From Leucoraja erinacea (taxonomy: Eukaryota): 64,000 nt of DNA. A program made the position numbers and the translations under genes. The stretch is from the NCBI RefSeq assembly GCF_028641065.1, contig NC_073386.1, forward strand, positions 57,412,001 to 57,476,000, read 5' to 3'. The notes beneath the pieces are model-generated. The model had not been told where the DNA came from and searched no databases. It was given only the letters and a program-made list of their open reading frames with translations. Positions 3,171 through 64,000 of the stretch are shown piece by piece. The first letter of the stretch is position 1. Each line of letters begins with the position of its first letter.

Positions 3171-3679
3171 TGGTGAATCCAGCACTCGTTGATGTCTGGT
3201 CCTTAAGAAGGGTCGTGAACCAAAACGCCACCCACCCATGTTCTCCGTAGATGCTGCTCGACCCGCTGAGTTACTCCAGCACTCTGTTCCTTCATGATCT
3301 GGCTGGTGTCTTGCTTATATGAAAGAGCTACATTGCCAATGCACACAAGCTCCAAATTTGCTGTTAACATGAAACTGTTGACAGTTCAAGAAATGAAAAA
3401 CGTTGATGAAACCCGAGTGATGGACAAGATAATGCTTCACAGAAGAAAGTTAAATCTGCATTGAATTAAAACCCACTTGTAGAAACTAAACTAAAGGAAG
3501 ATGTTTCCAAAAGTTATGAGCTTGATTCTATTACTCCAGAAGTGAAGGGCAGGTGGGGGAGAGTCTAAGGCAATTACCCCCCTTCATTTGATCAACACAG
3601 GGGACAAGGGGTCGGCTTAATCATACTTAGATCTGTCAAGAAATAAAAGGCAAACAATATTAAATCTCAAGTGTTTTTG

Positions 3680-3960
3680 TTTTGAGATACAGTGTGGCAA
3701 CGGGCCCTTTGGCCCACCGATCCACGCCGACCAGCATTCACCTGTATACACGCACTATCCTACACACTGGGGACTTTTTACCAAAGACAATTAACCTACA
3801 AACCTGCACGTCTTTGGAGTGTGGGAGGAAACCGGAGCACCCTGGAGAAAACCCACGCGGGTCACGGGGAGAACGTACAAACTCTGTACAGACAGCACCA
3901 TAGTCAGGATTGAACCCGTGTCTCCAGCGCTGTGAGGCAGCAACTCTACCGATGCACCAC
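3680..3960 (-). mobile_element. tRNA-derived V-SINE (HE1-like)
   Basis: A/B-box tRNA head on the minus strand, V-domain core (gagtttgtacgttctccccgtgacc), tail gggccgaagggcctgtttc-like. Confidence 0.85.
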
Positions 3961-4629
3961 CCTACCTTGTTGGGGGAAAAACACTTAAAAAGCAGCAGAA
4001 TATTTTTGACATTTACCAAATGAGAGTTGTCTACAGTCAAAGCATCTGTAGTACTTCTGCTTTATCAGTTTCACACTTAACTCTATAAACCTAAAGACTC
4101 CACTGTTGAAATGCAATTCAATATTTGACAAATCTGATCACCGTAACAGACAGATATAAAGCACACAGAGGGATTAATGTAGTGCATTTTTTCTTTGTGG
4201 TCCCTGAGAAATCAGTGGCAGTGGCAGAGGGTTGTTCTGATGTTCTAAGCCATGCCAATCCAGATATCCTTCCTTGGCACCAGTGGACCGTTACCACTCA
4301 CTGCCCGGTGTAACGTCATAAAGGCCCCCACTAGCCCAGGCACTTCCTGTGCATGCGCTGCCTAATGCATTGAGCATCTGGTGTGCAGGCATTTCAAAAT
4401 CCCCCAGAGCTCACAAAAATCTGCAATCAACTTTGAGCAAGTCTTATGTTTTAAAAGAAAAATGTAATGAGCAAAATGCTCCTGAGATTCAGAGCATGAA
4501 GTTCACACATATGTATTAGAAAATGGAAATTGACGCAAAATTCCACAGTTCCTCACCCCAAAATGTGGGAACGGCACCTCGTATTCCACTTGGGTAGCTT
4601 ACAACCCAACACCGTGTTCTCCAAAAACA

Positions 4630-4815
4630 GACGCAAAGTGCTGGAGTAACTCAAGAGGTTAGGCAGCATCTGTGGAGAGAGGAATTGGTGAAGTTTTGGG
4701 TCAGAACCCTTCTTCAGAGGTCCTGTCCCAAAATGTCACCTATTCCTTCTCTATGAAGATGTTACCAGACCCGCTGAGTTACTCCAGCATTTTGCACCTA
4801 TCTTCGGTATAAACA
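4630..4815. repeat. Palindromic pair of PLE terminal units
   Basis: gtgctggagtaactc...ggcagcatc mirrored by gatgttacc...gagttactccagca, with degenerate hammerhead remnants at the centre. Confidence 0.7.
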
Positions 4816-4819
4816 AGCA

Positions 4820-5083
4820 AGTGAGAAAAACTTTTTTCACACAGAGGGTGGTGAATCTCTGGAACTCTCTGCCACAGAAGGTAGTTTGAGGCCAGTTCAT
4901 TGGCTATATTTAAGAGGGAGTTAGATGTGGCCCTTGTGGCTAAGGGGATCAGAGGGTATGGAGAGAAGGCAGGTACGGGATACTGAGTTGGATGATCAGC
5001 CATGATCATATTGAATGGCGGTGCAGGCTCGAAGGGCCGAATGGCCTACTCCTGCACCTAATTTCTATGTTTCTATGTTTCTA
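4820..5083 (+). mobile_element. Young CR1 3' end with (CTATGTTT)n tail
   Basis: Nearly identical to the copies at 20790-21050 (-) and 41680-41926 (+). Confidence 0.9.
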
Positions 5084-5534
5084 TTTGCAGTTCCTTCCTA
5101 CACATTGAATTCTCCAAGTTTAGGTAAGTAACCTACTAATTTTAGTAGGTAGACAAATAATGCTGGAGAAACTCAGCGGGTGAGGCAGCATCTACTGCTG
5201 GAGGAATAGGTGACGTTCGGGTCAAGTCCCTTTTCAAACTGATGTCGGTGGGGGGGGGGGGAAGAAAGGAAGAGGCGGGGACAGGAGGCTTTGCGGGAGA
5301 GCTGGGAAGGGGGAGGGGAAGGAGGGAGAAAGCAAGGACTATCAATTTTAGTAGCTTGGTTACCTTCCACCCCCTCTTTCCTGGGCCCCATCTGGATTTG
5401 TGCCCACTTCACCTCTTTCCCCACTCTGCTTCAACCTACATTCCTTCCTCTGGCTTCACACTTCACACCTCCTATCTTCACCTCACACCTTTTGTCTTTT
5501 TCATCTCTGGCCCTTATGCAACCATCTGCCTATC

Positions 5535-5535
<1 letters not shown>

Positions 5536-5577: not shown

Positions 5578-5684
5578 CCTCACCTGTATCCACCCATCAC
5601 TTGTCAGGATTTGCCATGCCCCTCTTCCAGCTTTTCCTCCCCACCCCCTCCCGAGTCAATCTGAAGAAGAGTCCCGACCCATAA

Positions 5685-5991: not shown

Positions 5992-6836
5992 TCACATCAT
6001 CTAGCCACGTTCTCCAGAGATGCTGCCTGACCTGCCGAGTTTTACTCCAGCACTTGTCCTCTTATTGCAAGCCAACACCTGCAGTTCCTTGCGGTGCCAT
6101 CATGGGATTAAAAACATTGCGTAACCTTCCATGGGGACGTCCAGCAAACATTGCACTGCAAACTTTACTTGCTGCAAAGCAACGGGTCAGGACACAAAAT
6201 TAACTAAACAGCAACGGGTTTCTGCAAAATATCCAGCTGAAGTTAGCAAGCAAAACGATGACCATTTGTGGAGATACAAGTTCATAAGTTCATAGGTTAT
6301 CAGACTAGAATTATGCCATTCGGCCCATCAAGTCCACTCCACCATTCAATCATGGCTGATCTCTGCCTCCTCATCCCATTTTCCTGCCTTCTCCCCATAA
6401 CCCTTGACACCCGTTCCAATCAAGAATTTGTCACAATGCTTGGTCAAGAATACTTGGTAGGGTGCTGAAGAACTTCAAGTAGGCAGAGCTCTCAACTCCA
6501 TACAGACAGCACCCGTAGTCAAGATCGAACCTGGGTCTTTGTTGCTGCACCACAGTGCCGCCCCATGTCTCAAATGGAGGAAAAATGGCAATTGTGCACA
6601 AACTGAGAAGACGAGCAAGGAGGAACTGCAGATGCCGGTTTCCATCGAAGATAGACACACAATGCTGGAGTAACTCAGCGGGACAGGCAGCATCTCTGGA
6701 GAGAAGGAATGGGTGATGTTTCGGGTAGAAACACTTCTTCAGACTGAGTTACTCCAGCACTTTGTTTCTGAAGAGGGGTTCTGACCAAAAACGTCTATTC
6801 CATCTCTCCAGAGACGCTGCCTGTCCTGCTGAGTTA

Positions 6837-11795: not shown

Positions 11796-11822
11796 TATCT
11801 CTCGTTTCCCTTATCCCTAACC

Positions 11823-11910
11823 AGTCTGAAGAAGGGTCTCGACCCGAAAGGCCACCTATTCTTTCTCTTCAGAGATGCTGCCAGTCCCGCTAAGTTATTC
11901 CAGCATTTTG
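11823..11910 (+). ncRNA. Minimal hammerhead-ribozyme-like motif in a PLE terminal unit (stem III degenerate)
   Basis: agtCTGAAGAagggtctcgacccGAAAggccacc. Confidence 0.5.
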
Positions 11911-12379
11911 TGGCTATCCTTTGTTTGAAATCAATGCAGCAATTGATTCACCATTTTAGTATGAAGATTATGCAATTATAGCTCTCTGATCTTTTGGCAG
12001 TACTTGAATGCAGTGAAATGACCTGCCAAGTCCATTGTAAACACGGGCTGCACACAAAGGAACTGTATCCAAACACAACTTCATTACCATGCAACCAACT
12101 GCATTAATTTCACTTCCAAAGCCAACCATGCCTCACCTTAGCAATGAAACAACAACTCAGACGGCCAAGACCTAGAGTTGGGGAAGAACTTGTCTGTTCT
12201 AGTTTCAAAGTGGAATTAAAAAAAAATATTTCAAATGAATTCAGAGAGAATTCCAAGAAGCAGATCACTGAAGCTTAGCTGGGTCTCCACATAACAGGTA
12301 ACTATACGCAATGTGCTCGAGTATGTACTCAGAACGTTCACTTTCATCAAGTGTTTGTACACCATTTGCAGCATTCAAA

Positions 12380-15509: not shown

Positions 15510-15633
15510 ATATCCCTTCCATCTGCGTTATTACAACCGTGCGAATGCACGGAGGTTTGAGTGATGATCATGAGGTCTAGAATGCTGCATAGATGCTCCT
15601 TCCTCATGGAAGCAAGGAGATGACGTAGCCAGT

Positions 15634-16737
15634 ATGGCTTTGACATATGAGGAGTATACTGCTCCACAAGGCACACTGGTGAAGCCTTATTACTGGCTGC
15701 ACTTCACTGAAAGTTGTCCCAAGTGCCCGTATCACATCAAAACCGGAGATGAGGCCCGTGTATCCTACATGGAATTTTATGAAACCTTCGGCTTTCCCTA
15801 CGCTCAGCCACAGCGCGGGAATCATCTAGTTTTTTATGAGCTGAAGTTATCATCAGGCACGTTGGTGCAGAAGGGACAAGTATCCAACTGTGCTTTGTAC
15901 CAGCTACATCCAGAGGCAATGTTCTTCGATATGGAGGGCTACCTGGATGCACTCATGTACTCCTATGAAGACATTGCGTACATCACCCTATATTCCAATT
16001 ACACCCCGTGCAATGAGCGAGCCCATGGCTGCATCGGCAAAATACACGATTTCTTACTGAACTACCCGAGCACGAGGTTAGACGTCTACTTTTCCGCGCT
16101 CTACCATATCGACGACCGCCATTACGAATCGGGCTGGAACACTGAGGCTCTCCACACATTGGCAGCGCTGTGGCCCAGAGTGACCATTAATCCCATCAGT
16201 AACGGGACATGGCTGGCCATTCTTCACAGGTTCGTGAATGGCGTGCCCTGGACCGCACTTTATAACCCCGTCTTGCCCGAAAGAGCTTCTGCCGATCTGG
16301 CCAACGCCCATCAGATCGCCACCATCACCGGCGTCAACCCTTCCTATGTTGACGTCGCCCCTCATGCCAAGCAGCAGAGGCAACGTTTTAGACCGGAAGG
16401 TGCGAAGTTGTACAAGTTTGCGCAAGCAGCACTGCCCGCCATCAACGGGACGCCGTTCGCCTCTCCATACCAACCCTACGCCAATCTCTTCAATCTGCCC
16501 GCACTGCCCTGGTCAATGTATCCCCCCCAACCGCAGAAAACCAGGCCAAAGATCGTGGTGAGACATCTCAACATGCCGGGCACGTCTGAGTGGAAAACCC
16601 ATTCATCCCCGACAATCCGCGATGAACAAGTAACCGAGATGGTGGTGATAAACGAGGTTCCACTTAAGGAGAAAGCAAGCAACTCCAAGGGGCAGGAGAA
16701 GAACAAGGCAAGGCCAAAACACACAAGGAGGAACTAG
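15634..16737 (+). CDS. APOBEC4: APOBEC4, putative C-to-U deaminase of the AID/APOBEC family (367 aa, single coding exon)
   Basis: Uninterrupted ORF. N-terminus YEEY..GTLVKPYYWL..CPKCPYHIKTGDEARVS, Zn motif H92-P-E94 and P-C126-x6-C133 (APOBEC4-specific spacing), LYFS.LYH, LWPRV, IVVRHLNMP and basic C-terminus all match vertebrate APOBEC4 as I recall it. Confidence 0.97.
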   Translation: MALTYEEYTAPQGTLVKPYYWLHFTESCPKCPYHIKTGDEARVSYMEFYETFGFPYAQPQRGNHLVFYELKLSSGTLVQKGQVSNCALYQLHPEAMFFDMEGYLDALMYSYEDIAYITLYSNYTPCNERAHGCIGKIHDFLLNYPSTRLDVYFSALYHIDDRHYESGWNTEALHTLAALWPRVTINPISNGTWLAILHRFVNGVPWTALYNPVLPERASADLANAHQIATITGVNPSYVDVAPHAKQQRQRFRPEGAKLYKFAQAALPAINGTPFASPYQPYANLFNLPALPWSMYPPQPQKTRPKIVVRHLNMPGTSEWKTHSSPTIRDEQVTEMVVINEVPLKEKASNSKGQEKNKARPKHTRRN

Positions 16738-17180: not shown

Positions 17181-17886
17181 ACACTAAAACGCTACTAGAC
17201 TCCTGTAAAAGCATTAAATGTCTGCCCGATCAGATTAACGTCTTCTTCTTGCGTATAGTGTGCACAGCCTAAAGTTGTAGGACAACTTGTTCTATTTGAT
17301 CTTATTTGATTGTGCACGCTGGGTTGATTGTATTTGTCTAAACAGGGCGGACCACGTGAAGGTTGCAATCTCCCACCCCCATCAGATTACCTGTTGTACC
17401 ACGATTCTATTCCAGGTTAACTTTAGTCAGACGGTGGTGAATCTGTGGAATTCTTTGCCACAGAAGGTTGTGGAGGCCAAGTCAATGGATATTTTCAAGG
17501 CAGAGATAGATAGATTCTTGATTAAGGGGTTATGGGGAGAAGGCAGGAGAATGGGGTTAGGAGGGAGAGCTAGATCAGCTATGATTGAATGGCAAAGTAG
17601 ACTTAATGGGCCGAATGGCCTAATTTTATTCCTATTCCCAATGACCTTATTCAGTTATATGCACATGTACTGTGTTTCTGAATCCTATGGATTTGAATGC
17701 AAATTCCACTTTTGTGCAACTGATCCAAGGGATATGCTGATGCAATTGAAATCCATGGCAACAATGGATAGGAACTATCTAGGTTCCAGCTCACACAGAA
17801 CCATTCCCAAGCAAGGAAGCTAAAAGCTATCAGGTGAAGAGAAAGCAACAGAGAAAAAATATTATTTTTATATTTAAAATGGACAT

Positions 17887-18143
17887 AAAGTGTTGGAGTA
17901 ACTCAGCGGGTCAGGCAGCATCTGTGGAGAACATGGATAGGTGACATTTCACAGAGTGCTGGAGTAACTCAGCGGGTCAGGCAGCATCTGTGGAGAACAT
18001 GGATAGGTGACGTTTCACAGAGTGCTGGAGTAACTCAGCTGGTCAGGCAGCATCTGTGGAGAACATGGATAGGTGACGTTTCACTGCTGGAGTAACTCAG
18101 CTGGTCAGGCAGCATCTGTGGAGAACATGGATAGGTGATGTTT
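17887..18143. repeat. Tandem repeat, 66-bp unit x ~4, PLE-terminus derived
   Basis: Unit agagtgctggagtaactcagcgggtcaggcagcatctgtggagaacatggataggtgacgtttcac; units start at 17953 and 18019. Confidence 0.92.
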
Positions 18144-18239
18144 AGGAAGGAACAGCTGATGCTGCTCTAAACCAAAGATAGACACAAAAATCTGGAGCAA
18201 CTCAGCGGGTAAGGCAGCATCTCTAGAGAGAAGGAACAT

Positions 18240-18273
18240 GTGACGTTTCAGGTCGAGACCCTTCTTCAGACTG
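18240..18273 (-). ncRNA. Minimal hammerhead ribozyme motif (intact core)
   Basis: Minus strand cagt-CTGAAGA-A-GGGTC-TC-GACCT-GAAA-C-GTC-A. Confidence 0.6.
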
Positions 18274-18829
18274 AAGGGACCTGACCCAAAACGTTACCTG
18301 CTCCTTCTCTCCAGAGATGCTGCCTGACCCGCTGAGTTACTCCAGCTTTGTGTGTCTATGGATAGGTGATGTTTTGGGTCGAGCCCCTTCTTCAGACTGA
18401 TTGTAAGGATGGAGGGGGAGGGGGAGGGGGGAAAGGAGAGATTTGGAAAAAGGGCGAGGCAGGATAGCTGGAGGATAGCTGGTGGTGGAGGAGTTTGGAT
18501 AGGGAGCTGGTTGGAATAAAGGCCAAGGATAAGGAAGGAAAATGTGACATTAAAAAAGTTGCTGATGGTAAAGCTGATGGGAGGAGGGCGAGGCAATAGG
18601 GAAGAAAGTCTGTGGTGGGGGGAGAGGGGGGTTGATTTGAAAGTCTTTGGAGATACAGCATGGAAACAGGCCCTTCAGCCCACCAAGTCAGCCCCGACCA
18701 ACCCGTACACCAACACCATCCTACACACTAGGGACAATTTTACATTTTTTTACAAAGCCTACAAACCTGTATGCCCTGAGTGTGGGTGGAAGCCAGAGTA
18801 CACCTACATGGCCACAAAGAGATCGTAAC

Positions 18830-19050
18830 ACAGGGAGAGAGAGGTTACCTAAAATTGGAAAATTCAATGTTCATTCTGTTGGGTTGTAAGCTAACTAAGA
18901 GGAATACGAGGTACTGCACCTCCAGTGTGTGTGTGTGTGTGTGTGGCCTCTCTCTGGCAATGTACGAGGCCCAGGACATAAAGGTCAGTGTGGGAATGGG
19001 AAGGGGAGTTGAAATGGCTAGTGACCGTGAGATCAAGTAGGCCTTGGCGG
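18830..19050 (-). mobile_element. Penelope-like element, ORF C-terminal fragment
   Basis: LEVQYLVFLLVSLQPNRMNIEFSNF, homologous to the PLE ORF end at 36100-36173. Confidence 0.75.
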
Positions 19051-19175: not shown

Positions 19176-19181
19176 GGGGGT

Positions 19182-19228: not shown

Positions 19229-19229
<1 letters not shown>

Positions 19230-25785: not shown

Positions 25786-26563
25786 CATCTGCAGGTTATT
25801 CTGAGATTTGTTGAAAATAAGCAATTTTAGGATTTAAATGTTTTTAAATCAGACACTCGAATAATTATGCTCTGGTTTGAAGAAACAAAGGAGTACAGAT
25901 GCTGGTTTACATGGAAGATAGACACAAAGTGCTGGAGCAACTCAGTGGATCAGGCAACGTCTCTGGAGAAAAAGGATGGGTGACCTTCTGGTTGGACCCC
26001 TTCTTCAGACTGTTCCATTGAGAATAGAAGTTACGGATGCTCAGTGGAAAAGAGTTTCAAACCGGGCCTTAAATGTGCCAAAGGGCATATAATATGTAAC
26101 ACTGAACTGGCTGCACAGTCAATTCATTCATCCTAAAATGATGAGTCGCCCAAATGCTACTGAACATAATTTAAAGAGATTACACTTTAATGACCAAACA
26201 GGTCCTAAACCCCAAAAGCCACGAAACTAATGATAATTTGAGACTCCACTATAAAAATGATTAGCACACATGGCTATGTAATTTAGAGAAATACAATTAC
26301 CAAGAGCACTTCCAGAACAAATGCAGGCAGACAGTCATTATTTTGGGTAATAGTTTAAACTGGGCCCGAGCCAATTCCAAGTCGATCTCTAATTTAATCA
26401 TCAAGGCTACAAACATTCAAGCTTCAAGGTCTCAAAAACACCAGACATTTCTCTAAGATTAAGACAGCAATCAAATCATTGCTTGGCTCCCTAGAATTGG
26501 TAGGATAGGCCAGGTGTAGAGGGATATGGACCAAACACAGGCAGGTGGGACTACTAGTGCAGA

Positions 26564-36286: not shown

Positions 36287-36320
36287 AGTCTGAAGAAGGG
36301 TTTCGGCGTGAAACGTCACC
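36287..36320 (+). ncRNA. Hammerhead motif at the native PLE 3' terminus (stem II mutated)
   Basis: agtCTGAAGAagggtttcggcgtGAAACGTCacc. Confidence 0.55.
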
Positions 36321-39378: not shown

Positions 39379-40769
39379 AAGCCAATTGTCGCACAAATCT
39401 GTAAGTGTTCAGAGTGTGGGAGGAAACCAGACCTTTAGTTGCAAGCTATCCAGTCAATGGAAAACAATACATGATTACAATCGAGCCACATACAGTACTT
39501 ACAATGTATAGATACATGATAAGGGAATAGCGTTTAGTGCAAGGTAAAGCCAGTAAAGTCTGATCAAGGATAATCCGAGGGTCACCAATGAGGTAGATGA
39601 GGTAGAAAGGAGGCTACAGACTTTTGGCTGTTGAGTGGAACTACTGCTTGTGGAAAAAAGCAGTTTTTATGTCTGGCTGTGGCGGCTTTGACAGTCCGGT
39701 GCCGCCTTCCAGAAGGAAATGATTCAAAGAGATTGTGGACAGGGTGAGAGGGGTCAGAGATGATCTTACCCGCTCGTTTCCTGGCCCTTGCAGTGTACAG
39801 TTCGTCAATGTTCGTCAGTGTACAGTTCGTAAAATGCCACCAACACCTGGCGACTCTTGCATATGGACTCTGAGATGTCTCTATATATTCTGTACTTAAT
39901 CTGGGACTGGCCTTATGTATGGGAATAACTTTACTATTCTGTGTGTAAAAAAATCATTTCCCTGTACCTTGGAACAGGCAATATAAAGAAGATTGAAATT
40001 CTACATTGAACCTTCACACCCAGAGGCAGATGAAGCAACAGTTTCACTGGAACATGATGTCCTCAATAGAGTCACACAAGAATCATCTTCCTTTTGACCG
40101 AGTTCCACTTACTTTTTGTTCCCATGTGTTACACCTTAACCATCGTAGCTGAATTTGGTTCCAATAGTTGTTTAAGAAAGTAATACTAAACACCACAGAT
40201 GCTGTTGTCATTTCTCGAGGCCTTGGCGCGGCACTGGCCACAAAGGACATACATGGTGGACATAGTGTAATAGATCGCAGCTTTCCGGGAAAGCTAGAAT
40301 ATATAAAACAATCGACTCAAACACCCATAATTGTTCTTCAAAGAGAACGAGTAAAGAGGAAAGATAGACACAAAATGCTGGAGTAACTCAGCGGAACAGG
40401 CAGCATCTCTGGAGAGAAGGAATGGGTGATGCTTCGGGTCGAGACCTTTCCTCAGAAAGTCGATGGACCAGGTTCTTGATTGGAACATGTGTCAAGGGTT
40501 ATGAAGAGACGGCAGGAAAATAGGATTAGGGAGCAGGGATCAGCCATGATTGAATGGCGGAGTGGACTTGATGGGCCGAATGGCCTAATTCTACTATAAC
40601 AAGAACTTGTGATAGGTGCCCAACACCAACAGGCTCATTTGTTCTATTTCTCTCTATATTACCGTCTATATATCTCATTTCCCATTCCCCTGTCTCTCAG
40701 TCTGAAGAAGGGTCTCAGCACCTAGCCCTTTTCTCCAGAGATGCTGCCTGATCCGCTGAGTCACTCCAC

Positions 40770-43340
40770 CTTTTATCTTGGTCTATTAAAAGATTCAGAA
40801 CTACTTTAGATCTCCTCTTGTGAGCCTGCATGGTGCTCTGCATGTTCTCCGGCATTCTCAAAACCCCTTGCTTGGGTTATTGATCCACTCCGCGAAGGTT
40901 AGAGATTCCACCTCTAGTGGCTGCCAGCCATGGCCCGATGCTGTGGGCTGGTTCTATGATTCATGTCTGGCAGCAGAGGTATTGCGCACTCACTTGACAG
41001 ATGTAATGGAGCCAGGTTGCCAAACACAACCCGTCTCTCTTTTTCAGAGTTAGCGATCGTAGTTCCGTCGGAATGATGACGGCCATCACGGAGCAGAATG
41101 CCATCCTTTGAGGAGATTTCCGTTTGCATATTCTGGAATGTGCGGAATTCCTTGGCCAGCTTAGGACTGTTCGACTGGAAGATGGCCGGTGCCGGTCCAA
41201 ATGACAATCGGTTGTATCTGACCAGTCCCTTGTGCGTGTTAATCACGAGCAGGTTTTTTGTCTCGTTGTCCAGTTCCACTTGGAGATACTTGCAAAAAGA
41301 TTTGAGTATAGGAGCAGGGAGGTTCTACTGCAGTTGTACAGGGTCTTGGTGAGACCACACCTGGAGTATTGCGTACAGTTTTGGTCTCCAAATCTGAGGA
41401 AGGACATTATTGCCATAGAGGGAGTGCAGAGAAGGTTCACCAGACTGATTCCTGGGATGTCAGGACTGTCTTATGAAGAAAGATTGGATAGGCTTGGTTT
41501 ATACTCTCTAGAATTTAGGAGACTGAGAGGGAATCTTATAGAAACGTACAAAATTCTTAAGGGGTTGGACAGGCTAGATGCAGGAAGATTGCTCCCGATG
41601 TTGGGGAAGTCCAGGACAAGGGGTCACAGCTTAAGGATAAGGGGGGAAATCCTTTAAAACTGAGATGAGAAGAACGTTTTTTAACACAGAGAGTGGTGAA
41701 TCTCTGGAACTCTCTGCCACAGAGGGTAGTTGAGGCCAGTTCATTGGCTATATTTAAGAGGGAGTTAGATGGGCCCTTGTGGCTAAGGGTATCAGAGGGT
41801 ATGGAGAGAAGGCAGGTACGGGATACTGAGTTGGATGATCAGCCATGATCATATTGAATGGCGGTGCAGGCTCGAAGGGCCGAATGGCCTACTCCTGCAC
41901 CGAATTTCTATGTTTCTATGTTTCTATACACGTCGGATATGTCCAATTTCGAGAAGTGCTGTCCTCGCAGCTTGACGAACAGCTCTTCCACTCTTGGCAA
42001 GGGGTGTTGATCAACGTGCAATTGAGGGTTTACAGTCACTCTGTAGTCGCCACAGATGTGCACCTTGCCGCAAGGCACCTGAATGATAACTATGGGTGTG
42101 GCCCAGTCTGAATGGTCCACATGGGTGATTATTCCCATTTCTTCAAGGCGGCAAAGTTCCTTGTCGACGGCGTACATCCAACTGAATGGAACTGGTCTTG
42201 GTTTGAAGAACTTCGGGACGGCATCGTCTTTTTTAAGTCGAGCCGTGCCTTCATCTTTGTGCAATGTCCGAGTCCAGCTGCGAAAACGGCTGGAAACTGG
42301 TCAAGAACCTTCTGCAGATTGTTCACGCACTTGCTGACCATGTTACAATCTGGGGTAGATGACAATGCCACAGTTGATCCATCATAGATCAAGGCTTTCA
42401 TGTCAAGCTTGAAAGCATGGATCCAGTCGATAGCGCACAGGGATGTACCTTCTTTGCCAATGACGATCAGCGGCAACATCTGTGTCATACCATTACAGGA
42501 AAAGGCAACAGTGCATTTGCCTTTCGTGGGAATGGGCTGTCGTCCATATCTGAAAAGGCGGATGTTGTCCAGTTTCAGTTTCGGCGATCTGATCCTCTCC
42601 CAGATGTCCTGACCCACTAGCGACACAGCCGCACCAGTGTCCACCTGGAACTGTAGATCAACGTTCGAGACCCGCAGCAAAATCCTCAGCCTGTCGGTGA
42701 TCTTGGACACACCAAGCACTTCAATAGAAATGGTCTCCACGATTTGGTCAACTGCGGTTTGTGCTTTCTTGCCCTTTCTCCGCTGTTCTATGGACAGACT
42801 CGCTGCCTGGTGATGACCTTTACGGTACAGGCCTAACAAATGGACTCAATATACAGGCACTCACCGTGATGATGAGCAGTCGAGCCACTACGGTAGCAGG
42901 GTTTTGATCCTCTCCCCACAGGGGGACGGCTCTTCTGAAACTGTCCCACCTTCTCCGGATTTGCTCTGGGTCGATCAAGTGGTTTCCGGCGTTGCGGACG
43001 AGTCTGAAGAACTGTATGCACCTCCTGAGGGAGCTTCAACGATGTTTTGTCGGCCATTTTGTGCAGTTTTTTACTCAGCAGCTCGGCCATCTTAGCACAC
43101 TGCAGCACATTCTTCTCTGAGGCGTCCGATTCCTTGAGAATCACCTGCTGGATTGAACTTGGTGTGAAGTTCGGCAAGAAATTCGGTGATCGATTGCCCT
43201 TCCTGTTGCACCGTCCGTAAGAAATCAAAGCGAGCTGCGAGGAAATTTAGACTTTCTTCGAAATGCAGCTGCAAAGCCGTTATGATTTCAGCTTATGAGG
43301 CTTCAGTTACTTCAGGTGCTCCATGTACACTGTCAAGCCA
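40770..43340 (-). mobile_element. Decayed, internally deleted Ty3/Gypsy LTR retrotransposon (gag, Zn knuckle, protease, RT, pol remnants)
   Basis: gag LQLHF..LAARFDF..QQEGQSITEFLAEL; knuckle CYRSGSTAH...C; protease FQVDTGAAVS; RT PRPVPF..WATPIV..ICGDYRVTVN..PLPRVEELF..FSKLDI, resuming INTHKGLVRYNRLSFG after a CR1 insertion; frameshifts and stops; no LTRs identified. Confidence 0.9.
41293..41926 (+). mobile_element. Young CR1 3' end inserted in the Gypsy RT
   Basis: FEYRSREVLLQLYRVLVRPHLEYCVQFWSP...; (CTATGTTT)n tail; splits the RT between DVY and LQVELD. Confidence 0.93.
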
Positions 43341-44680: not shown

Positions 44681-45689
44681 TCCTGATTAATTCACAAATT
44701 GAGTTGTTCTTAGATGGGTAAATATTACTTCCTAAACCCGAACCTTTACATATATTCTCTCCCCTAGCCACAAGCATCAAAAGATGATAAAAGCAAGAAC
44801 ACTTCACACACTCAAAATGTTTTTATAAGAACCACAAAGGGTGGAATCAAGTGCAGAACAAAAAGTCCCATTTACAAAACATTTGGTCAGATTAAAAATA
44901 ATTATTTTCTGCCTCCCCCCGAAGTGTCGGAAAATTGACTTGGGGAGAGAACGTCCAATCCATTTCTCTCAAGTCTACCTCCGATAGACACAGAAGAAAT
45001 CAAGTCTCCACATTAATCAAAGCTCAGTTAGCTCAGTCTGAAGAAAGGTCTAGACCAAAAACATCACCCATTCCTTCTCTCCAGAGATGCTGCCTGTCCT
45101 GCTGACTTACTCCAGCATTTTGTGTCTATCTTCGGTTTAAACCAGCATCTGTAGTTCCTTTCAACACAAGACGAATTGCAGAGAGAGGGGAGCTGCAAGG
45201 GTTACTTGAAATTAGAGAAATCAATGTTCATACCGCTGGGGTTGTAAGCTGCCCAAACTAAATATGAGGTGCTGTTCCTCCAATTTGCGCTGGGTCCCAC
45301 TCTGACAATGGAGGAGGCCCAGGACAGAAAGTTCAGTGTGGGAATGAGAGGGGGAGTTAGTGTTTAGCAACTGGGTGATCAGGTCGGCCCAGGCAGACGG
45401 AGCATCATGATACCATGGAATTTGTGGAATCCCCAATCATTGACCAAAGATGGGAATCCTATTAAAGAGTAAAGTAAACAGCAATATGCACGGGAAAAAG
45501 GAACAACGTGGTGGTGTAACTCAGCACGTCACGCAGCATCTCTGGAGAAAAATGTCATAAGCCAGCATCTGCAGTTCCTCGTTGATGGTACCATTTCCCC
45601 CTCAAGAGGAAAATGTCACAAAGACCTAGGGAAAATCTTTGGAAGGTGAAAGGAAGGAGAAGGGAAATGTTTAAAGGGAGAGTTCAATA

Positions 45690-49307: not shown

Positions 49308-52300
49308 CTCCCCCACCTGCCCTTCACTTCTGGAGTAATAGAATCAAGCTTGTAACTTTTGGAAACATCTTCCTTTAGTTTAGTTTCTACAAGTGGGGTT
49401 TAATTCAATGCAGATTTAATTTTTCTCCTGTGAAGCATTATCTTGTCCATCACTCGGGTTTCATCAACATTTTTCATTTCTTGAACTGTCAACAGTTTCA
49501 TGTTAACAGCAAATTTGGAGCTTGTGTGCATTGGCAATGTAACTTTCATATAAGCAAGACACCAGCCAGACCATGAAGGAACAGAGTGCTGGAGTAACTC
49601 AGCGGGGACTCATCAGGACCCTTCTTCAGGACCAGACATCAACGAGTGCTGGACTCACCATGACGTAGAAACATAGAAAATAGGTACAGGAGTAGGCCAT
49701 TCAGCCCTTCGAGCCAGCACCGCCTTTCAATATGATCATGGCTGATCATCCAAAATCAATACCCCGTTCCTGCTATCTCCCCATATCCCTTGATTCTGTT
49801 AGCCCTAAGAGCCACATCCAACTCTCTCTTGAAAACATCCAGTGAATTGGCCTCCACTGTCTTCTGTGGCAGAGAATTCCACAGATTTTCCGTGTGAAAA
49901 AGTTATCCCTCATCTCAGTCCTAAATGGCCTAACCCTTATTCTTAAACTGTGACCACTGGTTCTGGACTCCCCCAACATCGGGAACACTGTTCCTGCATC
50001 TAGCCTTCACTCCTTTAAGAATGTTATATGTTTCTATAAGATCCCCAATATCTTATCCTTCTCAATTCCAGCCCAGTCGACCCATTCTTTCATGATATGT
50101 CAGTCCCGCCATCCCGGGAATTAACCTGGTTAACCTACGCTGCACTCCCCCAATAGCAAGAATGTCCTTCCTCAAATTAGTAAAGGTACAGCAGTGTGAA
50201 AAAGCACACCTCCAGATTCAGGGACAGTTTCTTTCCAGCAGTTATCAGGCAACTGAATCATCCTACCACAACCAGATGGCAGTGCTGAACTACTATCTAC
50301 CTCATTGGTGACCCTCGGACTATCCTTGATCGGACTTTGCTGGCTTTATCTTGCACTAAACGTTATTCCCTTACCAAGTATCTATACACTGTAAATGGCT
50401 CGATTGTAATCATGCATTGTCTTTCTGCTGACTGTTTTTAGCACGTGACAAAAAGCATTTCTCTGTACACGTGACAATAAACTCAACTGAACTGAGTTCC
50501 TTGTATCTAACACTTGAGTCCAGTTGGTTATAACCACTGTGACCTGTGGTCATTTGGTGAAGTGGTTTATTCCCTTCTGGGCCTGCCTTCCATTCGTAAG
50601 ATCGCAAGTTTGTAAACCATCATAATCAGAGGTGACCTCATAATGTGTCTGGCCGGCGACCTCACAGTGAACTGCATCCGTAACCATGAGAGACGGGCTC
50701 CATTCCATCTGTCAACTTGGTAAACTGGCTCCATTTCATCTGTCAACTTGAAGTGGGTGGGTGCACCATACCCATTCTGCCAGGCATTGAAACAGCTGGT
50801 AGCTACTAGAGGTCGAAACTCTAACCTTCACGGTGTGGATCAATAGTCCAAGCAAGGAGTTTCGAGAATGCCGGTGAAAAAGGACAGCGCCACGCAGACT
50901 TACAAGAGGAGATTTAAGGTAGATCTGAATCTGTTAATAGACCAAGATAAAAGGTGGAGTGACTCAGCGGGTCTTATTCTTAAACTGTGACCCCTAGTTC
51001 TGGACTCCCCCTACATTGGGAACATAGGGACGTAGGGCTCTTCTGCCACCTCTGAGTGTATCTTTATGGGGGAGAATCCAATCCATCCAGTGACAATCCT
51101 GTCTCCAGTCTCCAACATTCGCCCACCTCTCCCCTCCCCCCGCCCATACCCAGCCTTTTCCTGTCACTGGACCTTTTTATATCCACTGTTGGTGCAACAA
51201 CTGTCTTGGCTTCTCTACTCCACTGGCCCACTCAAACCGGGAGGGTCCTGACCTGAAACGACAAATGTTACGGAGCATCTCTGGAGAACATGGATAGGTG
51301 ACGTTTCACAGTGTGTTAAAGTAACTCAACGGGTCAGGCAGCATCTCTGGAGAACATGGATAGATGACGTTTCACAGAGTGCTGGAGTAACTCAGCGGGT
51401 CAAACGATGTCGGAAAGAAGGGGTTGAATATTCTGCAGTGTGGCTTTAGAGAGCTCGGAAAAATGCTGAAAAGCAGGACCTCCAGTGTTGTTATCTCTGG
51501 TTTGCTTCCAGTTCCTCATGCTGTCGAGAGCAGGAACAGGGAGATACGGGACCTGAATGTGTGGCTGAGGAACTGGTGCAAGGGGCAGGGATTTAGATTC
51601 TTAGATCACTGGGATCTGTTTTGGAGTAAGGGAGAACTATACAAAAGGGATGGATTGCATCTTAACAGATGGGGGACCAGCTTTCTGGCAGGCAGGTTTG
51701 CCACTGCTACATGGGTGGTTTTAATCTGAATAAGGGGGGTGGGGTGTCATATAGGACGGTGTTAAAGGGAAAGAGAATAAAGGGATGGTTAATGACCCTA
51801 GAATTAACGGGAAAGGAAGCTCACAAAGGGATAGTAGCGTATGGCCAAGTGTAATAGGGATCGATGTGAAAGGTGAGATGCGTAAAGAATTAAAAGTATT
51901 GTATATGAATGCGCAAAGTATAAGAAGTAAAGTAGATGAGCTTGAGGCTCAGTTACAGGTTGGTAGATATGACATTGTGGAGATTACTGAGACGTGGCTG
52001 CAGCAAGATCGGGCCTGGGAACTTAATATTCAGGGTTATACATCCTATAGAAAGGACAGGCAGGTGGGCAGAGGAGGGGGGTAGCTCTGCTGGCGAGGGA
52101 TGGAATTCAGTCCCTTGCAAGGGAAGACATAGGGACTGACGAGGTAGATTCACTGTGGATTGAGTTGAGGAATTGTAAAGGCAAGAAGACACTAATTGGT
52201 GTTATGTACAGACCCCCAAATAGAAGTCCGGATGTAGAGTGTAAGTTGCAGCTGGAGTTAAAACTGGCATGTAACAAAGGTTACTGTGGTGATGGGGGAT

Positions 52301-54847: not shown

Positions 54848-54878
54848 GGATTGAGGGGGAACACGTGGGGGGGACACA

Positions 54879-57594: not shown

Positions 57595-57955
57595 GGTTTT
57601 AAACTTGGGAAGTTTACACCCCAGCGGTGTGGATATTGACTTCTCCAACTTCAAGTAACCCTTGCTTTCCCTCTCTCTCCATCCCTCCCCCACCCTAGTT
57701 CTCCAACCAGTCTGACTGCCCCCCTGATTACATTGCATGCCTCGTTGTCACCTTCCCCGAGCTAACAATGATCCATTCTACATGTTCCTTCAACTTCATC
57801 CCCTTTGATGTCTCGGTTTCACACCAAACCCTTCCATATCTCTGTGTCTCCCTCTCCCTTGACTCTCAGACTGAGGAAGGGTCTCGACCCAAAACGTCAC
57901 CCATTCCTTCTATCCAGAGATGCTGCCAGTCCCGCTGAGTTACTCCACCATTTTA
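57595..57955 (+). mobile_element. PLE 3' end with hammerhead motif (57871: CTGAGGA..AAAACGTC)
   Basis: LGSLHPSGVDIDFSNFK* followed by the 3' UTR and terminal unit. Confidence 0.8.
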
Positions 57956-58579
57956 TTATCAACTTATTACGTTGATGGCCTCCAGAGTTGACATGCAGCC
58001 ACAACCTTGTTTGTCTTTTGCAAAGTAGTCAAATCAGGGGCAGATATTTTGCACAGTACAATGGAGCAGATGAATTTGAGTTGTCACCAATGCCGCACTA
58101 AAGGGCCCATCCCACTTAGGCTATTTTTAGGCGACTGCTGGCGACTGTCATAGTTGTAGCAGGTCGCTGAAAAACCGGCAACTGGACTCCCCCTACGGCA
58201 TAAAATTGGAAATAGAATCATTACTTTAACAACACAAATACCGGTGTCAAACCCGCTGTAGCAGCAACTTCTTGGAGGATGGAACAAGGTCCCAAGATGG
58301 ATTTCCAAGATAAATCACTGGATTGAAATCTAGGAAAATTAGCATCCCATGTGATTTGAAAGGAAACGAATGCTTACAGGATACAATGAAGTACTTGAAA
58401 TTGAACCATTAGTCCCTGCACTGATGTCAAACATTAATGTGGCTGCATAAACAGATCACACTACATTGCCCACAGCAGAGTTAAAGATTAATGTGTAGGA
58501 AGGAACTGCAGATGCTGGTTTACACCAAAAATAGACACAAAATGCTGGAGTAACTCAGTGGGACAGGCAACATCTTTAG

Positions 58580-61500
58580 ATTTAGTTTTTAGTTTTAGAG
58601 ATACAGCACAGAAACAGGCCCTTCGGCCCACTAGGTCCGCGCTGACCAGCGATCTCCGCACATTAACACTATACTACACACACTAGGGACAATTTTTACA
58701 TTTACCAAGCCGATTAACCTACAAACCTGCACGTCTTTGGAGTGTGGGTGGAAACCGAAGATCTCGGAGAAAACCCACACAGGTCACGGGGAGAACGTAC
58801 AAACTCCATACAGACAGCACCCATAGTCGTGATCGAACCCGGGTCTCCAGCGCTGCATTCACTGTAAGGCTGCAACTCTACCGCTGCGCCACCGTGACCT
58901 TCTCTGGCGAGAAGGAAAGCATGATGTCTCGGGTCGGGACTCTTGAAGACTAACGTCCTTCCTCAAAACAGTCAGCTACCAATCTCGTGAAACATGGTCT
59001 GGAAATGCCAAATTTCAATATTTCAATACAGAGAGGCAAAGTTAAAAACTGGCAAAACATCAATTCAAATATTCCCGATCACAGGAAAAACAAGGGCGGC
59101 ACGGCGGCTCAGCGGTAGAGTTGTTGCCATACAGCGCCAGAGACTCAGGTTCCATCCTGTCTGTACAGAGTTTGTACCTTCTCCCTTGTGACGGTGTGGG
59201 TTTTCTCCGGGTGCTCCGGTTTCCTCCCACACTCCACAGACTCACAGGTTTGTAGGCTAATTGGCTTCTGTAAATTGTCCCCTGCGCGTAGGATGGAACG
59301 CTTGTGAGGGCAATTCAGCATGGACTCAGTGGGCCGAAATGCCTGTTTCTACACTGCATCTCGAAACAAAAGTAAAAATGCAGTTCAAATTGAAAGTGGT
59401 TGCTCTCAAAAAAGGCAGGCAGATGTGGAGAAGGGGGAAATTTGAGCTTATTCATAGACAAACACTTTAGATGCACGTTACCCCTTGGAACCCTATGGTG
59501 TGCAGTCAATATTCATACAAGGTCCCCACCAGGTCATTACCCTGGCCCTTAGTGGGCACGGTGGCGCAATGGTAGAGTTGCTGCCTCACAGCGGCAGAGC
59601 CCCGGGTTCCATCCCGACTACGGGTGCTGTCTGTACGGAGTTTGCACGTTCTCCCTGTGACCATGTGGGTTTTCTCAGAGATCTTCGGTTCGTCCCACAC
59701 TCCAAGGACATATGGGTTTATATAAAGTGAATTGGCTTGGTGTAAATGTAAATGGTCCCTAGTGTGTGTAGGGTAGTGTTAGTGGCAGGGATCACTGGTC
59801 AGTGCGGACTCGGTGGGCCGAAGGGCCTGTTTCCGCGCTATATCTCTAAATGAAAACTAAGTTCAAAACCCGACCTCCGACCCTGATGAACAGTGTCAAA
59901 CCAAAACATTACCCATTCCTTCTCTCCAGAGATGCTGCCTGACCTGCTGAGTTACTCCAGCATTTTGTGCCTGTCTTCAACAATTCAAACTTGGATAGAT
60001 ATTAACTAAACAAGTTAGCTTCCTTTGCTAAGCCTTGCAAGTTAGAGGCATCATCTGCTATAGAATGTAGCACAATGTAGCATAGAAATAGACCCTTCGC
60101 TCCACAATGTTCATGCCATATATAATACCGAACTCCCTTATTTGCCTGCACGTGATCTATATCCCTCCGATCCCTATATCCATGTGCCTATCTAAAAGCC
60201 TCTTAAACACCACTATCATATATGCCTCCACCACCACCCTTGACATTCTAAGCACCCACCACTCCAAAACAAAAATTGGCCCATATATCTCCTTTAAACT
60301 AGGCCCCTCTCACTTAAATTTTGTCTACCCTAACATTTTCACCCGGGGGAAAAAGGAGCTATTCAGCAACGATTCAGGTTGTTTAGGCTCTAGAGATACA
60401 GCGCAGAAACAGGCCCTTCACCCACCGAGTCTGTGCCGACCAGCGATCCCTGCATACTAGCACTATCCTATACGCTAGGGACAATATAACCAAAGCCAAT
60501 TAACCTACAAACTTGCAAACCTACAATTAACCTACAAACCTGTACGTCTTTGGAGTGTGGGAAGAAACGAGAGCACCCAGAGAAAACCCACGCAATCACG
60601 GGGAGAACTCTTTACAGACAGCACCCGTAGTCAGGATCAAACCCGTGTCTCTGGTGCTGTAAGGCAGCAACTCTACCGCTGCGCCACCGTGTGACCTGCA
60701 GAAACTGAACGGAAAATAAAGTGCAGGAAAAAACTGCAGATGCTGGTTTAAACCGAAGATAGACAGAAAATGCTGGAGTAACTCAGCAGACAGCATCTCT
60801 GGTGAGAAAGAATGGGTGACTTTTCAGGTCAAGACCCTTCTTCAGACTTAAATAAAGTGCTGAATTAACTGTATCCCAACACAAAACGTCACCCATCTAC
60901 TGTATGTACTTCAGAGATGCTGCCTAACCCCCTGTGTTACTCCAGCACTCTGTGCTTGATGACAGATTCCATCATCTTCAGTTCCTCGTATATGAATGGA
61001 AAATAACACGAGCTGTAAACTTTTCCAAATTAATACTTTGGCGGGGGTGGGGGGGGGGATGAAAAGAACCTTTCGAGTTGATAACAGGAAAAATAAAATG
61101 TCACAGATGGAGTTAATGATCTGAGCAAATGCCTTTCTTCCATTAGTCTTGTGGGACTAATTTGCCTCGAATGATTAATCAGATAATCCTATCAGGCAAA
61201 ACATTCTCGGCACACAGCACAGATTAGCTTACCCATGTAACAAATATCTAAAGGGCAGCTCTCTGCAAATAATTCTGACGGCAATGTTGATGAAATAACA
61301 AAAGTGACATCCGTTTACTGCTAGTCTGCAGATCATAACTGCTGCAGAGATTGTGGATATGGAAGGTGCTTTCAAGGCAGCTTTGAGTCAGAGTCATACA
61401 GTGTGGAAACAGGCCCTTCAGCCCAACTAGTTCACACCAACCACACTAGTCCCACCTGCCCGCGTTTGGCCCATATCCTCCAAACCTATCCTATCCATGT

Positions 61501-63082
61501 ACCTGTCCGAACGTTTTTAATGCTTTGATAGTTTAGTGTAGAGATACAGTGCGGAAACAGGTCCTTCGGCCCACAACACTATCCTACACACACACTAGGG
61601 CCAATTTACATTCATACCAAGCCAATTAACCTACAGACCTGTACGTCTTTAGAGTGTGGGAGGAAACCGAAGATCTCGGAGAAAACCCACGTGGTCACAG
61701 GGAGAACGTACAATGTAATTTAATGAAATAGAGAATATAAATGTAAATTGTCCCTAGCGTGTCGGATAGTGTTAATGTGCAGAAATCGCTGGTCAGTCGG
61801 CCGAAGGGCCTGGTTCCACGCTCTATCTCAAGCTGGATGTACAGAGTGCGGAAAGTCTTTGGGAAGTCAGGAAGAGGTAGGATTACCATTGGAGAGCAGC
61901 TCAGACCCATTGATGAAGCCCTTGCATGCGTGGGAAATCGTGCATGCCAGAGTTGGCAATTTCATTCTGGTGCATCTTTGCACATCAAGGAGAGATGACT
62001 CTATCGAGATAGTCAAGGCTGGAGACATGGGCGTATGCATTTTCAACTTAGTTAATGATCACAGTGAAAAGCTTTTGTTGCGTGCTACCCAGTCAGCGAA
62101 AAGACAACACATGATTATAATCGAGCCGTTCACAGTGTATACAGGATAAGGGAATAACGTTTAGTGTAAGGTAAAGCCAGTAAAGTCCAATCAAAGATAG
62201 TCTGAGGGTCCTAGATGGGGTAGATAGTAGTTCAGGACTGTTCTCTAGTCGATGATAGGAAGGTTCTGTTGCCTGATAACAGCTGGGAAGAAACTGTCCC
62301 TGAATCTGGAGGTGTGTGTTTCTGGGGTTCCTGATGGAATGGAACTTGACCAAAGTGATCGTTCTTTCTGCACATTGGGACTTAGCACCCAAAAAGGCAT
62401 TCTGGGGAATTACTACAATGCTCTCCTGACTGATCCCAACCAACACCTCTCCATCAAGCAGTGAATTCCCCTCCACCACATCCACTAAATCACACACCCA
62501 ACAGAACAGAGGAAGGAAAAAGTGCTGGAGTAACTCGGAGGGTTAGTCTGAAGAAGGGTCTCGAACCGAAATGTCACCTATTCTTTTTCTCCAGAGATGC
62601 TGCCTGATTTGCTGAGTTACTCCAGCACTTTGTGTCTATCTTCAGATGATCAGGTAGCATCTTTGGGGAACATAGGCGATGTTTTGGGTCAACACCCTTC
62701 TTCAGACTGATTCTAGTAGGGCGAGTAAATTGGAAGAGAGGTGGGGGCAGGACAAAGCTAGCAAGCGATAGGCAGAATGTCAAAACAAGGGCGACACGGT
62801 GGCGCAGCGGTAGAGATCCGGGTTCGATCCTGACTACGGGCGCTGTCTGTACGGAGTTTGTACGTTCTCCCCGTGACCTGCGTGGGTTTTCTCCGAGATC
62901 TTTGGTTTACTCCCACACTCCAAAGACGTACAGGTTTGAAGGTTAATTGGCTTGGTGTAAATGTAAATTGTCCCTAGAGTGTGTAGGGTAGTGTTAGTGT
63001 GCGGGGATCACTGGTCGGTGTGGACTCGGTGGGCCAAAGGGCCTGTTTCCTAAGGGCCTGTATCTCCAAACCAAACTAAACT
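58580..63082. mobile_element. Cluster of V-SINEs (58580-, 59093+, 59553+, 60390-, 61530, 62790+) interspersed with PLE terminal units and a Rex-like tail (62060-62320)
   Basis: Same motifs as the other copies. Confidence 0.8.
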
Positions 63083-64000
63083 ACAAGGAATTGCAAATGC
63101 TGATTTCCAAAAGATAAAAAGCTGGAGTAAAGGAAGGAAGGAAGAGAAGAATTATTCAACCTGTCAAAAATAAACAAAAACAGGATTCTACTCCTCAACT
63201 CCCGATAAGTGGTGGACGAAGGAACGGCGGATGCTGGTTTAACCCAAAATTCTGGAGTAACTTAGTGGGACAGGCAACATCTCTGGATAGAAGGAATGGG
63301 TGACGTTTCTGGTCAGAAGAGGGGTCTCGACGAAACGTCACCCATTCCTTCTCTCTAGAGATGCTGCCTGTCCCGCTGAGTTCCTCCAGCATTAGTGGTT
63401 AGTGGGTAACGCACAAAGGGTGCGGAGAGAGTAAGCTGAGGGTCTCTGGGGAATGGCTGTCACAATGGTATAATGAGCGTTTGTTAGATGGAAAGGTGGC
63501 AACAATGCAGGGCTGAGTGGGCAGCAATACTTCCCAAGTCAAAGACAAGTAGCGGAGTGCAGTGACTAAGCCATGAATCACCTGCCACTGACTCGACTCT
63601 TTGTGCCAAATGAGTGCAGTGATAACTTGAATCAGTCTTCAGAAAGGTGGGTGCCCCCTGTCCCACCCTGCCCTCTGCCCCCTCCAATAGATTAACTGAT
63701 GTAGAAAACATTACAAGACTTGCTATACTTCCATCGCTCATTCTTTAATCTTCCCCCACAGTGAATACTAATGTTTACAACTTACACACACACACACACA
63801 CAATCCTAGCCCTCTCCTTCTCTACAGAGATGCTGCCTGTCCTACTGAATTACTCCAGCATTTTGTGTCCATCTCCTAATCTGCAGATCTGAATCACTGG
63901 TGCCCTCTGCTGGCCACACAATGTATTTCCAAAGAGAGACACAAAGTGCTGGGTGGATGTGTTTGCTGGAGAGTCCAGCGGGGTGGGGACAACACTATGG

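Follow-up and report, generated by a model that had tools for sequence, protein, structure and literature searches.

The region around APOBEC4 in the skate Leucoraja erinacea raises the question of why one gene neighbourhood holds so many ribozyme-like motifs and whether these act on the transcripts that contain them. The window analysed here is a stretch of 64,000 nt (assembly GCF_028641065.1, contig NC_073386.1, positions 57,412,001 to 57,476,000, forward strand), for which an initial annotation had reported about 20 hammerhead-ribozyme motifs on both strands around APOBEC4 and had proposed that intact intronic copies could cut host pre-mRNA. The motifs very probably belong to one repeat, the pseudo-long terminal repeat (pLTR) of an abundant Penelope-like element (PLE) of the Neptune/Nematis type, whose copies in the APOBEC4 area are mostly short, mutated and likely not cutting host RNA. 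The hammerhead origin and the large census of the earlier interpretation were borne out, but it had missed that a pLTR hammerhead is a standard part of PLEs.

All motifs fall into a single repeat family with a unit of about 100-140 bp, and the hammerhead motif occupies the first 34 nt of the unit. A profile made from window copies gave 52 matches in the window and a second model gave 51, so the initial annotation had undercounted. All 23 coordinates that it listed lie on copies of the unit, but few of these are intact hammerheads. The motif is spanned by 29 window copies, and the core is complete in seven of them (6745, 18272, 37767 and 60848 on the minus strand; 35896, 36287 and 62545 on the plus strand), whereas core, both stems and the palindrome described below are all intact in only two, 18272 on the minus and 35896 on the plus strand. 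A mismatch scan with the 34-mer (up to 12 mismatches) recovered 21 window copies as compared to 0-1 per shuffle in five shuffles, and a structural descriptor yielded 60 matches in 1.304 Mb and none in three shuffles.

The motif was read as a type I hammerhead consisting of GU (5' side of stem I), CUGAAGA, an extra A, stem II, GAAA, CG, UC or UU, and AC or GC (3' side of stem I). The core residues C3, U4, G5, A6, N7, G8, A9, G12, A13, A14, A15.1, U16.1 and H17 are the majority bases throughout an alignment of 412 copies, and all of them are present in 142 of 413 sampled motif-bearing copies. Helix II contains G10.1-C11.1, and the extra A follows A9. Residues A15.1-C-G-U16.1 form the palindrome ACGU, the stem III of a putative dimer, and its CG is kept in 47 of 58 strictly intact copies and in most relatives. 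Stem II comprises 4 bp, GGGU/ACCC or GGGU/GCCC, with a CUCG or UUCG loop. The initial annotation had described GGGTC/GACCC and GGGT/GCCC subfamilies that preserve pairing; the pairing is indeed kept, but the fifth pair of the former fails, and the difference between the forms is a one-sided A-to-G wobble change. A stem II of 5 bp with a 2-nt loop was rejected, as its fifth pair had a predicted probability of 0.000. Helix I has 2 bp in skate, with a third pair in 12 of the 58 strictly intact copies, and 3-5 bp with covariation in relatives.

The carrier of the unit was recognized when the C-terminus of a GIY-YIG protein was found upstream of one exact-match locus. A search of the genome for ends of the corresponding open reading frame (ORF) gave 82,220 first-look candidates, and in all 16 loci retrieved to obtain long frames the unit sits on the strand of the ORF, about 90-120 nt past its end. 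The longest frame, at locus L063, encodes 461 amino acids with reverse transcriptase (RT)-like motifs, a C-X4-CxxC linker and a GIY-YIG endonuclease with two inner cysteines (LIY-CxxC-YIG). The C-X4-CxxC linker finger precedes the endonuclease in L063-L066 and in the window copy, and a CX2-5CxxC finger at this position is a mark of Neptune and Nematis PLEs (PMC8557442). In addition, the translations show a CCHH finger with two cysteines between GIY and YIG, LIYCIRCSRCQLLYIG plus downstream histidines, which is also present in the window at 35589-35894. An ORF with RT followed by a C-terminal GIY-YIG, such a finger, and a hammerhead-bearing pLTR behind the ORF with tandem and inverted 5'-truncated copies are features of endonuclease-bearing (EN+) PLEs. 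Homologues from sharks, rays and many invertebrates carry PF00078 and PF01541. In 1.304 Mb of sequence sampled irrespective of the motif, the unit lies downstream on the same strand in 34 and on the opposite strand in four of 56 ORF ends.

The window itself holds a 3' end of this ORF at 35589..36171 (plus strand), whose translation contains the linker finger and the GIY-YIG domain with two cysteines between LIY and YIG and shares 78-81% identity with the RT and endonuclease protein of L063. It is broken at 35896 by the insertion of a pLTR unit (35896..35990, plus strand) that is flanked by a duplication of about 12-13 bp and harbors a strictly intact minimal hammerhead at 35896-35929 with a GUU triplet and a UUCG loop. 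A further pLTR unit (36287..36403, plus strand) follows 116 nt past the ORF stop; its core is intact, three of the four stem II pairs are formed, and at a distance of 391 nt it is the closest same-strand dimer partner of the 35896 copy. An internal PLE ORF fragment was identified at 28522..28806 (minus strand; 80% identity, E 2.6e-40), and ORF ends were located by similarity at 18848..19034, 38043..38132 and 45205..45401, all on the minus strand. As a separate observation, some isoforms annotated for host genes of rays and skates, with names that refer to a kinase domain, a chitinase domain or nicotinamide riboside kinase, contain PLE coding pieces, likely through read-through or misannotation.

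The likeness to a hammerhead might be incidental, the unit being a promoter or protein-binding hairpin of no ribozyme ancestry. An Rfam scan of the window gave 11 weak matches with the hammerhead family among none of them, and two-sided covariation is absent within the genome: among 748 double changes at pair 10.2-11.2, the first 100 listed comprised 15 that pair and 71 A-A combinations (counted by eye). The A-A form, however, travels as a passenger: a head-to-head pLTR pair that has this mismatch in stem II was multiplied inside a different, GC-rich repeat, as the shared flanks of 11 of 12 fetched loci show (L255-L265; C1, C2, many near the C1 end). A marker word of the carrier does not occur in the window.

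Relatives from metagenomes give a clear answer. Of 80 such loci, 36 reach the ORF end and 31 have at least 150 nt past it. When these 31 loci, some of which are close relatives, were searched for the core only, the motif appeared 89-177 nt beyond the ORF in sense orientation in 18 and in antisense orientation in two. Although pairing was not demanded, the first pair of stem II was formed in 19 of 19 matches and the first pair of stem I in 18 of 19. In an alignment of 12 relatives and three skate copies, two-sided changes were observed in seven of eight pairs, with a score of 0.712 versus 0.223 for shuffled alignments and 0.145 for the best slid control. The core bases are thus invariant, and both stems covary, between relatives that share only about 40-50% protein identity. 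The covariation that the initial annotation had asked for is two-sided across PLE families, but inside the skate genome only wobble changes occur, and the hammerhead-derived reading stands. As the covarying fold extends across relatives, the comparison argues that selection preserves the ribozyme fold on master elements. The architecture also fits published PLE hammerheads (PMC4209133), and an origin without ribozyme ancestry is largely refuted and barely credible.

An exapted intronic hammerhead does not fit the skate motif either. Amniote hammerheads of the HH9/HH10 type are single, canonical and conserved and lie in host introns in sense orientation. The skate motif is repeat-borne, minimal and decaying, and shows no strand bias.

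The repeat is extremely abundant. Genome-wide, 44,344 descriptor-intact motifs were counted in 2.19 Gb, and the exact 33-mer occurs 7,972 times; the reversed-pattern controls gave zero in both cases. This agrees with the very large ribozyme census expected in the initial annotation. Motifs that are otherwise intact but carry G12A or C11.1T number 8,328 and 6,970, respectively, with the same descriptor. Extrapolation from 45 copies in 200 kb and 266 in 800 kb suggests roughly 5-7 x 10^5 motif-bearing copies. No second hammerhead family was present among the 60 descriptor matches in 1.304 Mb. The density in the window (51.8 unit matches per 64 kb) is ordinary and within the local range, as the flanking 200 kb contain 41.3, 40 kb of RGL1 introns 62.4, 800 kb of other introns 37.8 and 200 kb of evenly spaced stretches of large contigs 23.4. 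By its density, the repeat shows no special link to APOBEC4.

The arrangement of the copies bears on how they arose. Neighbouring copies that are at most 30 nt apart are head-to-head in 114, tandem in 65 and tail-to-tail in six cases. Duplications of at least 12 bp (mode 14) flank 29 of 112 pairs but only seven of about 330 mismatched controls, and duplications of at least 11 bp flank 26 of 297 lone copies versus seven of about 890 controls. The start of the unit (-3 to +4) coincides with the start of the copy in 214 of 376 copies, and 70 of the 376 reach at least 12 nt into the PLE 3' untranslated region (UTR). RNA reads break off at the start of the unit, and the flanks beyond it are unlike each other. 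Most copies begin about 30 nt ahead of the cut site and only two at the cut position. In a genome-wide search of head-to-head junctions no clean restart peak appeared at the cut site. Among the first 100 of 162 listed junctions, which represent one narrow type and were judged by eye, none restarted cleanly at A1.1, one at G1.1 and five one base earlier, and about 39 restarted at G12 via a short shared word, several being ambiguous. A restart at position 32 was seen in one of 114 sampled pairs. Since copies start about 30 nt ahead of the cut site, the templates of these stubs were likely uncut RNA.

In the mechanism that is proposed on this basis, the RT of the element would use target-primed reverse transcription to copy an uncut transcript that begins shortly before the motif, and the start of the unit would correspond to the transcription start. 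Reverse transcription would begin about 100-140 nt inside the transcript, from one or both nicks, and would generate stubs of about 100-140 bp that share one start spot. In the Poseidon element PAc of the green anole, the template is predominantly unprocessed RNA, and reverse transcription starts internally about 110 nt downstream (PMC11167929), which fits the length of the skate stubs. Selection would maintain the ribozyme only on master elements, and the ribozyme would cut only as a dimer formed via the ACGU palindrome or with assistance from the protein of the element, in line with reports on other PLEs; in published PLE hammerheads a palindromic helix III permits dimerisation (PMC4209133; PMC6765202). 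Lone stubs, once inserted, would be passively read through in both orientations and then erode.

Alternatively, the short unit could be a separate non-autonomous element, similar to a short interspersed element (SINE) or a retrozyme, which is transcribed, is processed through a hammerhead of its own and depends on the PLE protein for mobilisation in trans. Most copies are short and share one start spot (the 214 of 376 mentioned above), 231 of 413 have no upstream sequence in common with another copy, the 35896 unit was inserted alone with a duplication, and animal retrozymes have been derived from PLE pLTRs (10.64898/2026.07.22.740005). Retrozymes, however, are tandem arrays of full hammerheads, whereas the 66-bp tandem unit found here lacks CUGANGA, and an intact same-strand neighbour within 1 kb occurs in only three of 58 strictly intact copies, a count that stretch edges lower a little. 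On these grounds a non-LTR retrozyme was rejected. Moreover, the copies start about 30 nt before the cut site and not on it, and the unit occurs attached to ORF-bearing copies whose 3' UTRs are of several types. A separate element is accordingly unlikely. The 66-bp unit itself derives from the pLTR. It forms arrays at 17870..18145 (minus strand), where it begins with G12 and the CUGANGA half of the core is absent, and at 51272..51402 (minus strand, found with the profile), where the 5' half of the core is likewise missing. Among 125 sampled stretches, 10 contain its junction, with 28 occurrences in total, and the junction is also seen in RNA reads. The cut-site half of the motif is retained, so the tandem unit could be a substrate in trans.

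If the dispersed pLTR copies acted on host RNA, traces would be expected in their decay, orientation and transcripts. Non-CpG substitutions amount to 5.4% in the core and 6.8% in the body, are alike base by base, and accompany a median copy divergence of 6.7%. The core is thus no better conserved than the flanks among skate copies. G12 lies in a CpG and is retained in 67% of 412 copies. Single copies therefore decay equally in core and flank, and G12 is lost mainly by CpG change. Orientation was analyzed in 80 stretches of 10 kb located between same-strand matches to LamG exons. These contain 124 copies in sense and 142 in antisense, of which 22 and 20, respectively, are strictly intact (Fisher p 0.50), and the sense-strand depletion of intact intronic motifs that had been suggested as a check was not observed. 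In four polyA/cDNA RNA runs mapped on one near-majority copy, the depth across the cut site was 8,000-32,000 with both mate directions alike, and no pile-up of read ends at the cut site was listed at a threshold of one fifth of the local depth. G12A accounted for 15-19.5% of the RNA reads and for 17.6% (18 of 102) of comparable genomic copies.

The predicted folds do not favour the active form. In four real copies stem I formed with a probability below 0.04 and pyrimidine tracts in the flanks competed for the core, and the modelled dimer fold reached -4.1 kcal/mol as compared to -21.1 kcal/mol for the best cofold, in models that ignore tertiary contacts. Self-cleavage after H17, as a dimer or assisted by protein, may occur. 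By four tests (decay, orientation, scarcity of intact same-strand partners, and RNA reads), the copies do not detectably act on host RNA. It is highly improbable that intact copies in introns or UTRs influence gene expression by cutting the transcripts of RGL1, APOBEC4 or other genes, whether in cis or as dimers in trans. At least 44,344 intact motifs are available for this, polyA RNA contains the unit in great abundance, so that trans partners exist, the hammerhead of the anole PLE cleaves once its protein is added (PMC11167929), and there is a slight excess of G12A. These points are set against the missing strand depletion, a core that is unconserved among copies, the absence of listed read ends and a disfavoured active fold. 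The APOBEC4-sense copies nearest to the ORF are dead, and the host gene over the window is unproven. The idea in the initial annotation that intronic copies cut the pre-mRNA of a host gene or of APOBEC4 is not supported.

Several points weigh against the assignment to an inert PLE pLTR. A full-length intact element was not found: the longest frame is that of 461 amino acids, and the N-terminal part was not recovered. The GIY-YIG matches score under the curated Pfam cut-off (E 0.014 for the window ORF), the clade was assigned by motif and not by a tree, with Neptune and Nematis not separated, and an ORF lies directly upstream in only 36 of 413 motif-bearing copies. The rows of the covariation alignment were chosen by a pairing descriptor. 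The intron test comprises only 42 strictly intact copies, and matches to LamG exons, not annotation, supplied the gene strand. Cutting at a low level could easily escape the RNA test, as the end threshold was one fifth of the depth and thousands of loci were pooled; moreover, the libraries are of unknown strandedness, the label of one run names another organism, and cut products may degrade. In one run G12A differed by mate direction (19.5% versus 15.3%), although two other runs show the reverse. Finally, G12A is 19% more frequent than C11.1T in the genome, a margin that could accommodate mild selection against active motifs.

A conditional form of cutting can also be envisaged. The repeat could cut RNA transcriptome-wide wherever the Penelope protein is expressed or transcripts pair via ACGU, and the CpG decay of G12 would then represent disarming by the host. 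Such a scenario is very unlikely; if it is true, at least 44,000 intact minimal hammerheads that are abundant in polyA RNA from both strands would constitute one of the largest recorded ribozyme loads.

The APOBEC4 frame (15574..16737, plus strand; PF18775, E 1.5e-18) is intact, with a likely start codon at 15634 (366 amino acids). The two APOBEC4-sense copies nearest to it, 11823 and 18265 on the plus strand, are both broken, and the sole same-strand pair able to dimerise (35896 and 36287) lies 19 kb downstream. The first polyA-like words after the frame are ATTAAA at 17213 and AATAAA at 18515. No RNA data set was listed as carrying the frame, which speaks neither for nor against its transcription. 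No coding exon of RGL1 is present in the window; the mapped ones, coding exons only, lie 1.9-178 kb to its left on the minus strand. As the 5'-most RGL1 coding exon found is located outside the window, 1,946 bp to the left and pointing away, a host gene that spans the window is unproven. One neighbouring RGL1 exon is 100% identical to proteins labelled Leucoraja erinacea and Amblyraja radiata. The APOBEC4 frame lies about 17.5 kb upstream of this exon and points in the opposite direction. The human arrangement places ARPC5 beside APOBEC4. In skate, matches to ARPC5 were found only far away from APOBEC4, and human-type synteny fails on that side. No bearing of the repeat on APOBEC4 is shown, and the gene appears as a bystander.

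To judge by their sequences, the remaining window copies near APOBEC4 are mostly inert debris. Among those located with the profile and checked for the motif, the core is broken in the pLTR unit at 3201..3315 (plus), in the units at 25872..26013 (minus) and 40348..40457 (minus), in a diverged unit at 27986..28062 (plus), in the unit at 5128..5242 (minus), which has PLE 3' UTR upstream to about 5341, and in the head-to-head pair at 63234..63393 (63234-63316 minus, 63312-63393 plus). Deletions of 10 nt run through the core at 30821..30911 and 40696..40790 (both plus), and a 5' fragment at 5655..5684 (plus) ends ahead of GAAA. G12A occurs in both members of the head-to-head pair at 4584..4846 (4584-4718 minus, 4719-4846 plus), in the unit at 57865..58009 (plus) and, together with an internal deletion, at 38272..38367 (plus). 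The same two steps identified 18266..18359 (plus), a partner with a broken core that is inverted relative to the pLTR unit at 18146..18275 (minus). The latter forms a head-to-head arrangement with it and bears a strictly intact motif at 18239-18272 with a G10.1-U11.1 wobble. A truncated unit at 18359..18401 (minus) is dead by G12A and lies downstream of the PLE ORF end at 18848-19034 (minus).

Other copies have lost single elements of the motif. The unit at 11821..11948 (plus), which is APOBEC4-sense and 3.7 kb upstream of the ORF, has a perfect stem II but is dead by loss of U16.1 and the palindrome. The palindrome is also lost, with the core intact, in 6608-6749 (minus), whose head-to-head partner 6767-6836 (plus; pair 6608..6836) is broken, and in 60716-60850 (minus), which faces a partial copy at 60875-60986 (plus); this pair (60716..60986) is flanked by a 14-bp duplication. 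The unit at 37616..37770 (minus), near the PLE ORF end at 38043-38132 (minus), has an intact core, a weakened stem II and no palindrome. G12A marks the unit at 45032..45174 (plus), with a PLE ORF end at 45205-45401 (minus), and the minus-strand member (62708) of two overlapping opposite-strand units at 62543..62711, of which the plus-strand member (62545) has an intact core and three of four stem II pairs.

Apart from the pLTR, a second very dense SINE-like repeat of about 280 bp is present at 18848-20033, 29158-33557, 58614-60691 and elsewhere, with many copies in every sampled stretch, and yields two false 18-nt core matches at 19899 and 33426. Frame fragments of endonuclease and RT of the long interspersed element type occur at 528-1502, 20925-21461, 41205-41657 and 53278-53865, two of them with Exo_endo_phos_2 and RVT_1 matches. 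A frame at 42129-42845 (minus) contains a DTGA aspartic-protease-like word, has no Pfam match and is likely a fragment of an LTR retrotransposon. Low-complexity tracts that are long, rich in purines (G/A) and strongly skewed in both GC and AT extend over 45700-49070 and 54180-55110 and are possibly poorly resolved in the assembly.

The skate motif shares with the minimal hammerheads of PLEs (PMC4209133) the CUGANGA core, the extra A before helix II, G10.1-C11.1, a tiny palindromic helix III, a short helix I, the location in the pLTR, and the occurrence mostly as scattered single truncated copies with some opposite-strand pairs. The closest published variant is the Drosophila virilis type with a 2-nt palindromic insertion and a 2-bp helix I (PMC4209133), but helix II has 4 bp in skate as compared to 6-8 bp in the examples of that paper. 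In contrast to the Neptune and Nematis elements described in PMC8557442, clear flanking duplications of 12-16 bp occur in about a quarter of the skate pairs. Poseidon PAc of the green anole likewise has a pLTR hammerhead and no RNA-seq ends at the cut site (PMC11167929). It belongs, however, to another clade that lacks the linker finger, the start of its ORF overlaps stem II, and its activity has been measured, with cutting only in the presence of protein, whereas the skate motif is known from sequence and RNA reads. Animal non-LTR retrozymes also carry a type I hammerhead from PLE pLTRs and occur in the single chondrichthyan sampled (10.64898/2026.07.22.740005), but they are tandem repeats with a full hammerhead per unit, whereas the skate copies are mostly lone or head-to-head.

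The skate repeat is a further case of the known PLE minimal-hammerhead class and is notable for its number, with 44,344 intact motifs as compared to about 4,000 in coelacanth and about 9,000 in Xenopus, counts that were obtained with different descriptors (PMC4209133). No shark or skate is named in the text portions of PMC4209133 that were covered or in its supplement file 2, and a search of the literature, which left Repbase, Dfam and preprint supplements outside its range (the latter may name species), found no paper on PLE hammerheads of skates or other cartilaginous fish. The finding extends the association between hammerheads and Penelope pLTRs to skate, with about five times as many copies as the highest count for any one genome in the parts of PMC4209133 considered. 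Hundreds of thousands of stubs record where RT stopped, the inversion of pairs and the spacing of the two nicks. They point to an uncut RNA template, which bears on what the PLE hammerhead is for.

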